A stretch of 64,000 bases of DNA. Origin: Minisyncoccota bacterium. Lineage in GTDB: Bacteria > Patescibacteriota > Minisyncoccia > Phycocordibacterales > PALSA-1337. The position numbers are program-made. Below are positions 41,301 to 47,300 of the stretch, piece by piece. The DNA lies in assembly GCA_041665325.1 (NCBI GenBank), contig JBAYJB010000002.1, positions 28,674 through 92,673 of the forward strand, in the 5' to 3' direction. Position 1 is the stretch's first letter, and every line of letters starts with the position of its first letter.

Positions 41301-44300
41301 TACAAAGGGAGCGAGATATAAGAAGGCCACAAGCGCGGAAATGGAAGCCAAGATCAAGCAGGAGTTCCATAATATCTAAAACTTCATAGCTTCTTGAACT
41401 TTTCTTCACGGAAATTTGAATCTTTTTTGAGCCTTCCTTGAACCCCTGGCCGATATGATGTGCCCATGAGACGGGGCACATTCGTTTTCTGGAGCATTTT
41501 CACAGCCGCGGCCATCATCCGCGTGACCATGTCCCTGCACCTCGTTGCTCCTGACGCGTCTTCATGCCTCAAGCATCAGAATACAGGCATCGGCACGGTC
41601 GTGGTGGACCCGGAAAGGAAAGAGTCGGGGCAAGTATTCATCGTCGCCGTGGATAAAATGTTTGCGGTCGATGCGACTACGACAAAACAGACGTTATGTG
41701 CCGCCGATATCTCGATCAGATTGAAAACCAAGCTCTACCCGCGATTTTCATATGGAGACATGATAAGTTTCACAGGTAAATTATCAAAACCCTTCAACTT
41801 TTCTAGTGACACCGGCCGGCAATTCGATTACAAGGGGTATTTGGCCAAAGATGATGTCTTCTATGAGATGAAAAGCGCCGTGGTCGAGCTGGCTACGAGC
41901 TCGTCCGGGCATTCATTCACGGAAAAAATAACCTCCGCGCTTCTCCATCTCAAGCGCGGCTTTGTAAACAACCTCGAAAGCACTCTCGGCGAGCCGCACG
42001 CAGCCCTGGCCGCCGGTTTGGTCGTCGGCGAGAAGAGTGCGCTCGGTGCCGACCTCCTCGATGATTTCCGCATCGTCGGACTCATCCACATCGTGGTGCT
42101 GTCGGGGTTCAACATCACTATCGTAGGTGTGGCCATGCGGCGCATCCTCTCATCTCTGCCACGAGTGTGGGGGATCGTGATCGGCGGCGTCGGCATCGTG
42201 CTCTTCGGGGTGCTAGTGGGCGGCGGCGCGACTGTCATCCGCTCCTGTTTCATGGCCTCGATCGCTCTCATCGCTGACCTCATCCGGCGTGACTATAGCG
42301 TGAGTCGGGCCCTGGCCTTCGCGGCGCTCATCATGCTCATCCAGAATCCTTTGATCCTCCTCCACGACCCGTCATTCCAGCTCTCATTCCTGGCGACGAT
42401 GGGGCTCATCCTCTTGGCCGGCCCGCTTGAGGAGCGCTTCGGCTGGGTGCCAGAGCGGTTTGGCATGCGCGGCACGGTCGCTACTTGTCTGGCGACGCAG
42501 ATATTCGTCTCGCCTTTTATCCTCCACATGATGGGGCAGATCTCGCTCATCGGTATCGTCGTGAATATCATCGTCCTGCCATTCATTCCCGCGACGATGC
42601 TCCTGGTCTTCCTGACCGGGGCGCTCGGCTTTGTCTGGCCTCCGTTGTCAGTAGTCGCCGGCTGGGGCGCGCACTTCCTGCTCTCCTATGAGCTCTTCAT
42701 GGTCGAGCATTTCGCCCGCGTGCCATACGCCGCCGCGCATGTTTCGCCATTCTCCGGCTGGTGGGTGGCGGGGTTCTATGTGGTTTTTTGCGCGGGGTAT
42801 TGGTGGGTTACTAGGGGAAGGAAAAATTCTTTGTGAGTGGTGCTGGCCATGTGGGACGAGGTTGGACCTGTCATGCAACAGATTGAAGCAAAAGAAAACA
42901 GTCGGGGTTAAATCCGACTGTCGCTGTTGGGTCTCTTGAGTGTAACCTCATTGTAGGCGTGCTTGACGCCTCGTTGTTCGGTCTTTCGACCTACACCCAA
43001 CGCCGACTTATACCTTACTTAAGACTACTAACAAAAGTCAAGTGCTAGAGGTGCGGGACGATGCTGGAACCATTACACAACGAGAGGTGGAAAACTGTCT
43101 ACCTTTAAAACACCTTTGAGGAAAGGGGTACTTCAGATTGTGGCATGAGATAGACCGTCTCTTCTTTTTCATTCTTCACTCCCAAAACAAGAACTTCCGA
43201 TTTTTCAGGTCCCATTTGCTTTACACCAAAATTAATTACTGCAATTATTTGTTTTCCTACCAGCTCCTCCTTGGAGTAATTACGATAAGCACCACAAGAA
43301 ACTTTTAAACCCACTTCGGATCCAAAATCAATAGTCAGACGGTAAGTCGGCTTCTTTGTATTCGCATCCTCAACCTTAGTGATTTTTCCTACGCGTATAT
43401 CTAACATCTCAAAATTATCAAAAGAGGTTATTTCTTTCATAAAATTTATCATACCATACGTGCTGGCTGTGTGGGACGAAGTTGGGACTTAGATATCACT
43501 CCCTCAATAAAATTACTCCGGATAACAAAATCGCAAAAAATAGGATTTTCTTGAGAAGATGCCCTTTGTGTAAATCTTCCTTGAACACGGATGGAAATAA
43601 ACCTCGGCCCAACCATGCAAAGATAAGCAGATAAAAAGGAGAGATCATAGTTATTCCCTTAACAACGCTAACCGAGGTCAGTGAGATTGCATATGCCTCG
43701 GCTGCTAAACCAAAGAAGGTGAGCATCTCTTCTAATAAAAACAGCGGGGATAGTCTTATGAATGTCGGCAATGATGCCTTGATATCATGCCGTACGCGAT
43801 GAAAAGCCAGTAATGACAGGGCTAAGATCAAGGCAATGGCTGCCTCGCCCCCTATTGCAGTACTAACTGAGACCCCATCATCAAATAGCAGTTTGAATAG
43901 CACTCCTTCAAACGCAAGGATGAATGCCGCAAGCCCTATGTGCCATATAGCTTTGCTAAACCTGAACTTGGCTTTAGTGTGATGCAATCCAAGCGCTATC
44001 ACACTCGTAACGATCAGTGCAATCCCGATATACTGGACCAGATCAAGCACTTCTCCCACGATAAGAAAAGCCAGGACGGGAATAAATAACCTACCTATAG
44101 CAAAAAAAGAAATTGCTATGGAGGTATCGTCAGATTGCAATCCTTTGTAGTATGGATAAAGATATCCAATGCTGATGAAACCCAAAATGACAAAAATGGG
44201 CAACGTATCAAGGGGCGGAATTTGTGGCGGATCAAATAAGAAAAGAACGGGTATGAAAATCAGATTGAAAAGAGAGGTATAAAATACCAACGTAAGAAGC

Positions 44301-47300
44301 TTCTTGAATTTTTTATTGGCTAAAAAGTTGTCAAAGACTTCGGCTATCGAGTAAAAAGCCGGTGCCAAAAAGGCAAAGAATATCCACATGTGCGGATTAT
44401 AGCACAGGCTTAATTAACTAAGAGTAATATCAGATAATCTTTGATTACGAAAACAAATATTACAAAACATAGCGTACCCAATAGTGACATTTTTGAATAA
44501 TTATCTTCATGTGTCTTGCCTCTCGATAATAGAAAGGTTAACTCATCAACAAATAACCCCAGTCCGATTGCACATGAAATAACTGAACCAAAAATAGTAG
44601 GGCTTGGTACTGGATAGACAAAAAGAAAAACACGCGCTATGAAAATAGTCGCGAGAAAAATTGTAAAAAATATCCGGCTAGTTTCTAACATGATTTGCTG
44701 CGGGACTTGGATTCGAACCTATCTCAACCCCCTACTTCGCCCTCTTGAGATTCTCCTCAATCACCTCCCAATTCAAGTTCGCGAAGAAATCTTCCACATA
44801 CTGCTTCTTGCCGGACGGCTGGTAGTCGGCCACATACGAGTGTTCCCACATATCGAGGCCGAGGATCATGTCGCAGCCATTGAGCTCGCCGAGGTGCTGT
44901 TCGTCAACCCATGAAGCGAGCAACTGATCATCATTCCTGTCATACCAGAGCACCGCCCAGCCGATACCTCGCGTTGTTGTGGCCATGCTCTTAAACACAT
45001 TCAGCCACCCATCGAATGATCCCCAAGTCTCAGCGACCATCTTCTTGAGCAAGCTTGATTCTTTCAGTGATCGTGCGCCGCCTTCCAAGGAAGAGAAGTA
45101 GACTTCATGATTGCGCATGCCGTTGTATTCGAAGCTGAAGCGCCTGCCAAGCTCTCCCATGACATAAGAGTTAGCGATTGGGTCGGCATTGTACCTGCCA
45201 AATGATTCCATGATGCTGTTGGTATTCTTGACATACCCCGCATAGAGCTTGAGATGCTCCTCTATATTCTTGGCCGAAATGCCCTTGAGTGCCGGGATGG
45301 TAAAAGTTTTAGCGATGAATGGTTTCATAGATATTTGAATAAAAATTCATTAAGATTTTAATATTTCTTCATTCGGATTTTAACATTTTTTGAGCGTTCC
45401 TTGAACCGTGGCCGGGTATGATCAGTCTATGTCGGGAATGATCACATCGAAACCGTTTGCCATCGCCGCAGGCACCATGCTGGCATTGTCCGGCGTCGGC
45501 GGCTATGCCTGGCACGAGATGCATCGTCCAAAGGTCTTGGAGATGTATGTTTTCGACCTGCCCGGCGCGCCGGGGATCCTGATCCGCACCCCAAACGACA
45601 GGAGGATCCTCGTGGATGGCGGTTCGAACACCGAGGTCGTCAAGCGACTCACCGATGTCCTACCGTTCTATTCGAGACGGATAGACACGGTCATAGTTAC
45701 AGGCCGAGAGGGCAGGAATGTCACGGGGCTCATAGATATCCTGGACCGATACATGGTCAGTAAGGTTGTTTTACCCGGCATCACTCCGCAAGATCTTGGT
45801 CTGGCCAGTATGACGGATCGGATATATGAGATTTTCTTAGAGACAGCGGAGAGTCATGGCATCCCAGTCAAGAAGGTCGTGGCAGGGGAGAGGATCATGC
45901 TCGATGATGATGGCTCGAAGAGTGTCGTTGCGGACATCTTGTTCCCGGTCCTAGGCGACGAGTTCAAATATTCCAAGGCCAGCGGCCCATCAATCGTCAT
46001 GAAGGTCACTTACGGCGCGACTTCTATAGTGGTGATGGGGGATGCGAGCATGAAGATCCAGAAGTTAGTCACGGAAAATAATAAATCGCCGGTGGATGCA
46101 CTCATTTTCTCGCATAGCATCGTGGCATCAAACATTTCCCGGGAATTGATCCGTTCATTCATACCGGAATCAGTCGTATATTCGCAGACCATCGCCAAAC
46201 CGTCTAGCAAGGCGAGCAAAAAAGCCGCAGTTGATCCCTTGGCGGGAATCCTCGCCGACCATCGCTTCAATGTGAAGGGAAATGGCGTGGTGAAGATGGT
46301 CTCGGATGGCGTCCGGCTGATAATAGAATAAAAAAACGCGCCCGGGTGGGGGCGCGTTGGGGTTCTGTCAGCCGATGTGCTGATGCCAGAGAGGTTCCAA
46401 TCTTTCGTAGGCCACTCTCTCCATGCGGCCATCAGGGTCCAAGACGAACGCCACAGCTTCAAGTATCTCCTCGATCTCCGGGGAGGTTTCGAATCCGTCG
46501 GCGGATGTCTGGGCGTTGTGCTCGCGAGATAGCGCTATCTCCAACGCATGTGTCGGAATCGCGATAACTCTCGAAATGAAGTTGGTTTCAAAAAGGGATT
46601 TGATGAGTTTCGGTGGGTGGCGTGAGATATGCCCTTCGAAAGCTCCTTGGATTCCCGTCGGTCTATCCGTAAGGACACGGACTCTGAAATCTGACCTAAC
46701 TCTCAATGCTATTTTCATAGGAACAGGGGGGTTTGGCAGAATGATGCGCCTGTATAGACAAAAAATCAAGCCCCACCGGGCCTTAGTGTTGAAACAAATT
46801 TTGGTCGCAGACTAGATGAGCTTGGCGTCGCGGAGGGCCTTGAAGGCGCCGTTCTTCTCGATGGTGCGCATGCCGCGGGCAGAGACATTGAGGCGGATGG
46901 ACTTCTTGAGCTCGGGGATATAGACCGTCTTCTTCTGCAAGTTCGGGTAGCGACGAACCTTGCCGCAAGGGTTGAATTGCGTAGCACGCGTCCGGTTTGA
47001 ATACCGACCGCCGTTCATCGAACCTCGCTTAGTTATATCGCAGACTCTGGCCATAAAATTGGATAGACACGTATGCTATCATATGGAAATCCAACAATCA
47101 AATGCTCACCGTATTCTCCATCGTCATCCTCATATTCTCGGTCATCGTGCATGAAGTGGCGCACGGCTATATGGCTGACTGGCTGGGCGACCCGACGGCA
47201 AGAATGTCAGGCCGATTAACGCTAAATCCCATTAAGCATATTGATCCAGTGGGTTCTATTATAGTGCCATTGATCACCTCACTTGCCGGCTTCACTTTCG

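Follow-up and report, generated by a model that had tools for sequence, protein, structure and literature searches.

A probable two-piece ComEC with a degenerate metallo-β-lactamase subunit and twin promoters in a clade of Patescibacteria

We analysed a 64-kb stretch of contig JBAYJB010000002.1 from a small-genome Minisyncoccota bacterium of the Patescibacteria, a group also called the candidate phyla radiation (CPR), and focused on the competence gene comEC and a gene downstream of it that encodes a protein with a metallo-β-lactamase (MBL) fold. The whole 64-kb stretch is referred to below as the window, and coordinates are those of the window unless a related locus is named. The reading that best fits the evidence, to which we assign a probability of about 0.68, is that ComEC is made here in two pieces. 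A channel core and a conserved pseudo-nuclease subunit would be encoded by separate genes, each served by its own copy of a co-evolving, probably activator-dependent, leaderless promoter, and this organisation would be characteristic of a whole clade.

Results

The two genes match the two halves of a full-length ComEC

The product of comEC (41466..42836, + strand) is 456 amino acids long and consists of an oligonucleotide-binding (OB) fold (DUF4131) and the Competence channel. In the Pfam search, Competence (PF03772) matches residues 187-451 with an E-value of 9e-51 and DUF4131 (PF13567) has an E-value of 1.7e-11 (44.6 bits against a cut-off of 31.6). As no other Pfam domain was assigned, the search bears out a preliminary description of this DNA in which comEC was said to lack its usual C-terminal MBL domain. 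Likewise, the protein passes TIGR00360 (61 bits, cut-off 36.5) but fails the full-length equivalog TIGR00361 (61.7 bits, cut-off 190), and its chain ends past the Competence domain. The MBL module is a separate open reading frame (ORF) located 2.6 kb downstream, with the superoxide dismutase gene sod in between. The GC contents of comEC and of the MBL-like gene are 0.57 and 0.53, respectively.

The preliminary description had placed a membrane-anchored MBL gene at 45408..46331. Its fold is indeed of the ComEC type, but the start requires correction: the ATG at 45429 is likelier than the GTG at 45408 because the homologues begin there (P0001, for example, has 300 amino acids). The MBL-like gene thus occupies 45429..46331 (+) and encodes a 300-amino acid protein. 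With this start, the distance from the hexamer TATGAT to the ATG is exactly 6 nt for both genes.

The suggestion that a hidden Markov model would confirm the relation of this protein to ComEC did not hold for Lactamase_B or for Pfam in general. The MBL-like protein has no Pfam or NCBIfam match beyond noise and no match to an MBL family even at E-values up to 10. Precomputed Pfam assignments are absent from its homologues P0001-P0088, while PF00753 (Lactamase_B) is assigned to P0089-P0104. The relation emerged from solved ComEC structures and from the fold. A phmmer search of the PDB with the MBL-like protein returned only the β-lactamase-like domain of ComEC (9ic4_A, 4e-7) and full-length ComEC (30bt_A, residues 532-746), and a profile of 78 family members run against the entire PDB retrieved ComEC entries exclusively (30bt_A at 1.3e-16 and 9ic4 at 2.4e-15). 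The AlphaFold2 model of the protein (pLDDT of 94.6) contains a helix at residues 7-31 followed by the MBL sandwich. The best Foldseek match of this model is again 9ic4 (E-value of 2e-17, target-normalised TM-score of 0.76), and the next is Pce, which is reported as the nearest structural neighbour of the authentic ComEC β-lactamase-like domain (PMC12455585). The helix at residues 7-31 is modelled as a transmembrane helix and carries two lysines on its N side in the family consensus. By the positive-inside rule only, the protein would be a single-pass, N-in/C-out anchored domain.

The comEC core aligns with residues 143-493 of the 801-residue ComEC 30bt_A (E-value of 2e-24), and the MBL-like protein aligns with residues 532-746 of the same chain. 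The two proteins thus tile one full-length ComEC, which supports the proposal that the two genes encode the two halves of a ComEC.

The metallo-β-lactamase-like protein appears to be a conserved pseudo-nuclease

The catalytic and metal-coordinating residues of the ComEC β-lactamase-like domain are H598, D600, D602, H603 and D700, and the domain carries HHG and GHP motifs (PMC12455585). In Moorella glycerini numbering, the MBL-like protein has G in place of H598, E in place of D600, R in place of D602 and N in place of H603, and retains D700, so that four of the five ligands are replaced. The GQGD, HHG and GHP motifs are gone as well. This loss extends to the entire family: HxDxDH, GQGD, HHG and GHP are absent from all 79 close family members that were aligned. 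In contrast, more distant standalone homologues of about 285 amino acids keep HHG and GHP in 16 of 16 cases, and their HxDxDH motif has at most one substitution.

Despite the loss of these motifs the gene is under purifying selection, with a ratio of nonsynonymous to synonymous substitution rates (dN/dS) of 0.20 relative to the closest related contig (L001). The family has invariant motifs of its own, F-x-YSKAS-x-PE and LPFYSRRID, which are not seen in active ComEC domains, and its invariant polar and aromatic residues comprise R53, D57, R59, Y81, R83, D86, Y181, S182, K183 and Q211. A HMMER search of 1.84 billion representative sequences yielded 201 clusters at E ≤ 1e-30, the top 150 of which are all short standalone proteins. 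Where the sources name the organism, the homologues belong to Parcubacteria, Paceibacterota, Minisyncoccia or Patescibacteria. Because the motifs are lost family-wide and yet dN/dS is 0.2, the MBL-like protein is best read as a conserved, catalytically degenerate pseudo-nuclease.

Both genes are preceded by copies of one putative promoter module

The window contains exactly two copies of a 22-nt core, TTTTTTGAGCSTTCCTTGAACC, which occupy positions 41423-41444 and 45386-45407 of the + strand. Allowing up to three mismatches adds no copy, and shuffled sequences lead one to expect 0.00. Both copies continue with TGGCCG..TATGAT. That a motif is shared by the two genes had been pointed out in the preliminary description, which gave its length as roughly 37 bp; the sharing stands (two copies, none expected), while the length does not, since the alignable region upstream of both genes extends over about 100 nt.

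This region contains an array of hexamers with an 11-bp period. Upstream of comEC, the array (41394..41443, +) comprises TTGAAC at 41394, TTCACG at 41405, TTGAAT at 41416, TTGAGC at 41427 and TTGAAC at 41438, and is followed by a TATGAT −10 box (41454..41459, +) located 6 nt before the ATG at 41466. Upstream of the MBL-like gene, the array (45368..45406, +) comprises TTCATT at 45368, TTTAAC at 45379, TTGAGC at 45390 and TTGAAC at 45401, and the TATGAT −10 box (45417..45422, +) is again located 6 nt before the ATG. In both arrays, 10 nt lie between the end of the last hexamer and the −10 box, and phased hexamers of this score are found at no other site of the window. In general terms, the module consists of three to five TTnAnC hexamers that repeat every 11 bp, all on the same side of the DNA helix, followed by a 9-10-nt gap, a TAnnnT −10 box, 6 nt (6-8 nt for comEC) and the ATG. 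A −35 box at a distance of 16-18 nt is absent, and a σ70 scan found no −35/−10 pair at either site. Without a canonically spaced −35 box, these promoters probably depend on an activator.

The same architecture, with drifting hexamers (TTTATC, TTCATC, TTGATC), is present at both genes in relatives. When 92 promoters were aligned on their −10 boxes, the resulting profile had TT.A cores at −15, −26, −37 and −48 relative to this box. In 664 kb of related loci, the generic architecture has 96 matches against 0-3 in shuffled sequences, and 88 of them are located at comEC (33 of 41 loci) or at the MBL-like gene (51 of 74 loci). Six of the eight remaining matches are on the + strand about 100 nt (about 300 nt in L141) upstream of the start of one of these genes, which leaves two that are truly elsewhere. 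The distance from the −10 box to the ATG is 6 nt in 48 of 57 MBL-like genes; in 35 comEC genes it is 6-8 nt.

A TANNNT sequence is found 5-9 nt upstream of the start in 11 of 48 window genes, compared with 4.4% of random positions, and Shine–Dalgarno-like 4-mers occur in only three of the 48 start regions, so many transcripts of this genome are likely to be leaderless. Leaderless geometry, being common in the genome, is therefore not special to the comEC/MBL pair, but the repeat array is. The array is absent from the approximately 46 other start regions of the window, which include those of strong housekeeping and pilus genes; among the latter, the type IV pilus genes (pilB at 23897, pilC at 25652 and the pilins) all lack it. 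For the competence-regulon box that the preliminary description offered as another explanation, the pertinent observations are this absence from the pilus genes and the near-confinement of the architecture to comEC and the MBL-like gene. Taken together, the data support the identification of the shared element as a putative promoter module with leaderless geometry. The idea of a common promoter that gives rise to leaderless mRNAs, also put forward in the preliminary description, agrees with TATGAT being located 6 nt before both ATGs and with the lack of a Shine–Dalgarno sequence, as far as geometry is concerned.

Several other readings of the element were considered and rejected. In a canonical σ70 reading, TTGAGC and TTGAAC are 21 nt and 10 nt from TATGAT, respectively, and the scan finds no promoter there. 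The σ54-like (TGGCCG...) and σ28-like (GCCGATAT) sequences of the window copy are not conserved in relatives. A DnaA-box reading of the TTATC-type units fails because TTATCCACA is incompatible with the conserved TTnAnC core. A scan of a genome collection with TTTTTGAGSNTTYYTTGAACC gave at least 120 single chance matches in unrelated taxa, and none of the matches listed was near a homologue of comEC or of the MBL-like gene.

A predicted σ70-like promoter of sod, TTAAAA-17-TAAAAT (45355-45383, −), overlaps the distal units of the array of the MBL-like gene. A factor bound to this array could also affect sod.

The two promoters resemble each other more within than between genomes

When the 44-nt comEC promoter was used as a probe, its mean identity to the MBL promoter of the same genome was 0.73, compared with 0.37 between genomes. 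The MBL promoter was among the probe matches in 28 of 40 loci, usually as the sole match; the strand was the same, and the register mostly agreed to within a few nucleotides. In L181, 54 identical nucleotides that end at the −10 box are present in both promoters. In L156 (2095-2262 and 5792-5960), the same GC-rich palindromic insert separates the −10 box from the start in both promoters, and the array is located about 100 nt upstream. The excess of within-genome over between-genome identity indicates that the two promoters evolve in concert, as judged from the sequences of these loci.

The split is old and predates the low-GC cassette between the two genes

A metagenome scan yielded 80 distinct related loci. 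The order comEC(+)..sod(−)..MBL(+) is found in 50 of the 51 loci that carry both genes, sod (−) is located directly upstream of the MBL-like gene in all 69 loci in which sod was detected, and the longer string rnhA-comEC-sod(−)-MBL-rpmB(−) is recurrent. L001, L003-5, L006 and L007 all display this order, with identities of the MBL-like protein to that of the window of 54% (L003-5), 46% (L006) and 41% (L007). A split with sod between the two halves thus appears to be old and common to a whole clade. The preliminary description had proposed to check whether comEC is contiguous in relatives; in the loci compared, relatives at 35-56% MBL identity have the same split with sod.

Between comEC and sod, the window contains a low-GC cassette of about 1.9 kb (42820..44708) with three genes on the minus strand: a CsaA-like tRNA_bind gene (43105..43452, GC 0.36), an EamA/drug-metabolite transporter (DMT) gene (43496..44389, GC 0.42) and a gene for a 93-amino acid hydrophobic membrane protein without a family match (44410..44691, GC 0.32). 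They are followed by the Fe/Mn superoxide dismutase gene sod (44732..45328, −, GC 0.51), which is divergent to the MBL-like gene. The preliminary description named these four intervening genes correctly and called all of them low in GC, which applies to the first three but not to sod. L001, the closest contig, is colinear with the window at 94-96% nucleotide identity, and blastn shows that it has 31 nt in place of window positions 42820-44708. The low-GC DNA is thus a real insertion, as had been proposed. The same contig, however, refutes the further proposal that the AT-rich cassette split an ancestral comEC: L001 lacks the cassette and nevertheless has comEC, sod (−), the MBL-like gene and both copies of the motif. 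Furthermore, the cassette boundaries lie past the comEC coding body and before sod, and not within a coding sequence. The cassette therefore appears to be a recent insertion into an already split locus, and sod is native and not part of it.

The notion that the promoter was duplicated together with the insertion of the cassette fails on L001 too. A weaker form of it, in which duplication accompanied an older separation of the halves by sod, remains tenable: L143 (5741-6001) has neither sod nor a second array, and its MBL-like gene follows comEC after 260 nt.

In relatives, the interval between comEC and sod has a median length of 136 nt, the extremes being an overlap and 2 kb. It exceeds 500 nt in 18 of 49 loci, where its cargo is diverse and often lower in GC. 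The cassette of the window is thus one of many insertions into a hotspot. Its genes are bounded by a 26-nt repeat (GTGCTGGC..GTGGGACGA.GTTGG) at 42840-42865, 43042-43067 and 43460-43485, and related sites are present at 44697-44720 of the window and at 6735-6760 of L001. The right junction and the empty site of L001 carry a sequence that resembles a tRNA 3′ end, GGTTCGAATCC, on the minus strand. A tRNA gene suspected at the junction from GGTTCGAATCC-like sequences was not confirmed, as ARAGORN found none there in either the window or L001. The repeats and the tRNA-like ends may be attachment-site remnants of successive integrations. In six loci (L132, L140, L168, L179, L199 and L206), a small + strand gene that immediately follows comEC in the hotspot matches PBECR2/PBECR3 (Barnase-EndoU-ColicinE5/D-RelE-like nuclease); the match is above the Pfam cut-off in L168 only and weak in the other five.

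Other CPR lineages display a different arrangement. In L208 and L209, comEA, a Competence-only comEC and an active MBL gene of 283-285 amino acids form one operon with overlapping ORFs. The active standalone MBL family, with proteins of 284 amino acids, is large; Woykebacteria and Saccharimonadales are among the sources named for it. A series that leads from a fused gene to split, adjacent and active halves, and from there to sod-separated halves with a degenerate MBL module, is likely. An MBL module that is separately encoded explains the published near-absence of the ComEC-MBL fusion in CPR (PMC6744442).

A layout similar to that of the window occurs independently in L008 (1212-8816), a 593-kb contig that also carries COX15/CtaA and is probably not of CPR origin. 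Here, a 716-amino acid ComEC without an MBL domain and a 271-amino acid active standalone MBL protein are encoded on the same strand with four minus-strand genes between them.

A hairpin at the comEC start

The comEC start codon is located in the loop of a putative hairpin (41457..41482, +; arms GATGTGCCC and GGGCACATT) that has a T-rich tail and is terminator-like by scan. In the window, the stem comprises 9 pairs, 5 of them G-C, and the tail is CGTTTTCTGG. Codons 3-5 pair with the stretch that separates the −10 box from the ATG, leaving the start codon in a 7-8-nt loop. Covarying hairpins are found at comEC starts of relatives, including L003, L007, L132, L150 and L177, and examples of their arms are GTGCCC/GGGCAC, GCGCCC/GGGCGC, ACTCCCC/GGGGAGT and GACTTTCT/AGAAAGTC. 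The mean contiguous stem is 5.2-5.5 bp when the arms come from the same locus and 3.7-3.8 bp when the arms are swapped, and none of 2000 and none of 1000 swaps reached the observed value. Several comEC hairpins fold much better than shuffled sequences, with z-scores down to −5.4. At the start of the MBL-like gene, a search for a similar hairpin gave a weak excess over swapped arms (4.25 versus 3.59 bp), possibly due to composition, and the fold in the window is no better than that of shuffles.

Because the 5′ arm and the −10 box overlap, RNA initiated at the ATG is unable to fold into this hairpin, and only transcripts that read through from rnhA can do so. With low to moderate confidence, we suggest that the hairpin could serve as an insulator, either by terminating such RNA or by masking the start codon.

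Neighbouring genes

Upstream of comEC, the conserved block consists of recJ (38765..40654, +; DHH, DHHA1 and RecJ_OB by Pfam) and, immediately before comEC, rnhA (40657..41379, +; RNase H by Pfam). According to tblastn synteny, rnhA is located upstream of comEC in 40 of 51 comEC-bearing loci, and recJ-rnhA-comEC is a conserved string of DNA-processing genes in the clade. The rnhA product has a weak match to a Cauli_VI/hybrid-binding domain at its C-terminus, whereas the usual place of this domain is the N-terminus. Downstream of the MBL-like gene, the conserved neighbour is rpmB (ribosomal protein L28; 46812..47054, −). An Rfam search of the 40-48-kb interval returned zero family matches.

Elsewhere in the window, TrmB-family regulator genes form three divergent pairs with Peripla_BP_6 binding-protein genes (1383-3362, 5229-7223 and 21870-23867), and the third TrmB gene is located just upstream of pilB. 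The intergenic region at 2166-2252 contains an inverted repeat around a canonical leaderless promoter, TTGACA-16 nt-TATAGT. A Bro-N domain protein (20939-21766, GC 0.42) is encoded beside the pilus cluster and may be derived from a phage or a mobile element.

Discussion

Combining these observations, we propose the following model. The first piece of ComEC (41466-42836) would provide the OB fold and the membrane channel. The second piece (45429-46331) would dock on the outer face of the channel in a non-catalytic role, either structural or DNA-guiding, and the non-transported strand would be handled by another nuclease or by none. With sod separating the halves, each gene would have its own copy of one promoter module, on which an oligomerising activator would bind the direct repeats and take the place of the −35 contact, making the expression of both subunits matched and switchable. 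Gene conversion or strong co-selection would keep the promoter copies alike in each genome. More tentatively, the hairpin on rnhA read-through RNA may end or silence this RNA and so make ComEC reliant on its own promoter.

A stricter version of the model can be formulated, in which the dead MBL module is an obligatory lid or strand guide, the twin activator-dependent leaderless promoters are homogenised by gene conversion, and the promoter-embedded hairpin is a terminator, all of this clade-wide. We consider this version to be speculative, its joint truth being appreciably less than an even bet.

Several observations weigh against the two-piece ComEC with twin regulated promoters. Concerning the protein, (i) the MBL-like protein evolves faster than the ComEC core, with identities of 54% versus 71% in L003 and 93% versus 98% in L001, (ii) its gene is linked in synteny to sod and rpmB no less tightly than to comEC, and (iii) L147 (5917-6003) has rnhA, then an array, then the MBL-like gene, and neither comEC nor sod is present within 6 kb. 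The layout of L147 is, at the same time, the expected product of recombination or deletion between two direct promoter copies. Concerning the promoters, (iv) 12 of 40 loci show no ungapped similarity between the two, (v) the MBL-like gene lacks the array in some low-GC lineages, (vi) a complete third module (TTTATC, TTGATA and TTCATT at 11 bp, TAAAGT, 7 nt, ATG) is present in L159 (12818-12880, −), where it precedes an unrelated, uncharacterised 125-amino acid gene downstream of fusA, so that the module is not strictly exclusive to comEC and the MBL-like gene, (vii) no OmpR-type or cognate winged-helix regulator was found among the scanned ORFs of the 64-kb window, and (viii) the phased T-runs could act by DNA curvature and not through a protein. 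Finally, the T-run after the comEC hairpin can also be accounted for as coding sequence, namely the codons of the hydrophobic residues with which the first transmembrane helix begins. The third module of L159 also hints that the regulon has more members.

Points (vi) to (viii) are at the centre of the strongest competing explanation, according to which the array is a generic feature of the lineage, such as an UP-element-like or curved T-tract promoter, and the within-genome similarity reflects local homogenisation. The 11-bp phasing of the T-rich units favours curvature, and the drift of the hexamers (TTGAAC, TTTATC, TTCATC, TTGATC) is unusual for a conserved protein-binding site. Such a feature, however, would not be expected to be nearly confined to two genes, as is the case for 88 of the 96 matches in 664 kb, nor to be missing from the other starts of the window; furthermore, the TT.A core and its distance to the −10 box are invariant over 92 promoters. 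We regard a generic array as unlikely, although it deserves serious attention.

Points (i) to (iii), together with the invariant motifs specific to the family and the constant position of the gene, divergent to sod and followed by rpmB, could also mean that the MBL-like protein has left ComEC for another role in the envelope and that its link to comEC is historical or positional. This is quite unlikely considering (i) that concerted evolution has kept a matching copy of the promoter at this gene, (ii) that the protein is predicted to retain the membrane anchor and the topology expected of the C-terminal domain of ComEC, and (iii) that an apparently inactive yet retained MBL domain has a precedent in the ComEC of Streptococcus pneumoniae (PMC12455585).

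The near identity of the promoter copies within a genome, which includes the spacer bases and, in L156, the shared palindromic insert, is what would be seen if a small mobile promoter element akin to a miniature inverted-repeat transposable element (MITE) had inserted twice. However, the position, the strand and the register to the start codon are conserved at 33 comEC and 51 MBL loci, neither terminal repeats nor extra copies elsewhere were found in the 664 kb, and the module itself comprises the −10 box and the start codon, all of which makes two insertions of a mobile element improbable. It is very improbable that the MBL-like protein remains a hydrolase or nuclease with a re-invented active site: a dN/dS of 0.2 and the many invariant polar and aromatic residues would suit such an enzyme, but the canonical metal-ligand positions carry substitutions and vary within the family, and no Lactamase_B model matches. 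Lastly, the scenario in which an AT-rich cassette inserted into an intact comEC, cut off its MBL domain and duplicated the promoter in the same event accounts for a low-GC block between the halves and for homologous promoters, but is hardly tenable in the face of L001, which is split and has sod and both promoters without the cassette, of the same split in 50 of 51 loci, whose MBL identity is 35-56%, and of cassette boundaries outside coding sequence.

If ComEC is indeed made in two pieces under twin promoters, the published picture of a CPR ComEC without a nuclease domain would have to be revised, as the domain would be encoded separately, active in some lineages and degenerate here. An MBL subunit that is under selection and yet dead would constitute natural evidence for a non-catalytic role, a question raised by the ComEC of S. 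pneumoniae and by recent structural work (PMC12455585), and the role of the MBL module is easier to test on a separate polypeptide. As these organisms depend on scavenged nucleotides, the question arises of what, if anything, degrades the non-transported strand. The twin promoters offer a motif with which to find a DNA-uptake regulon and its regulator in organisms for which almost no transcriptional regulation is known, and represent a clean example of the concerted evolution of two promoters. With them, a cis-regulatory module for DNA uptake would become recognisable in CPR for the first time. Natural competence is so far the sole genetic route into CPR (PMC10633639), and knowledge of the parts and the control of ComEC could help to extend CPR genetics past Saccharibacteria.

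Comparison with known systems

The literature that we searched contains no description of a separate MBL subunit or of these promoters. Sites of OmpR/PhoB-family activators include the pho box, the TT(A/T/C)ACA-N5 repeats of Bacillus subtilis PhoP and the TGTWAH-N5-TGTWAH sites of WalR. Like the sites of PhoB, PhoP and WalR, the arrays described here consist of two to five hexamer-N5 units, end about 10 bp from the −10 box and are not accompanied by a −35 element. Unlike the named boxes, none of which is matched by the consensus TTnAnC, they belong to promoters with leaderless geometry.

Canonical ComEC/Rec2 proteins, such as those of B. subtilis, Legionella pneumophila and M. glycerini (30bt, 9ic4), have the same modules in the same order: the OB fold, the channel, and a transmembrane helix with the MBL fold. 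The locus of the window differs from them in that two genes, 2.6 kb apart and with sod between them, encode these modules, and in that the MBL module lacks H598, D600, D602 and H603. In the latter respect it is similar to the ComEC of S. pneumoniae, where the MBL domain is reported to be probably inactive and EndA degrades the non-transported strand (reviewed in PMC12455585): both retain the MBL fold without the full set of metal ligands, which implies a non-catalytic role. The S. pneumoniae domain is, however, fused to the channel. In the present locus the module forms a membrane-anchored polypeptide of its own, and among the window genes none was identified as EndA-like.

ComEC proteins that lack the MBL domain are known from Helicobacter pylori, from the 'DC' (DUF4131+Competence) profile of Pimentel and Zhang (2018) and from CPR (Meheust et al., 2019), in which the ComEC-MBL fusion is essentially absent (PMC6744442). 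The comEC of the window has this DUF4131+Competence architecture, reported to be typical for CPR; those reports treat the MBL module as absent, and here it is found as a separate gene. The nearest parallel is provided by the comEA-comEC-MBL operons of L208 and L209, which likewise have a standalone, N-terminally anchored MBL protein of about 285 amino acids beside a Competence-only comEC. In those operons the ORFs overlap and the catalytic motifs are intact, whereas in the window sod lies between the two genes, which have separate putative promoters, and the motifs have disappeared.

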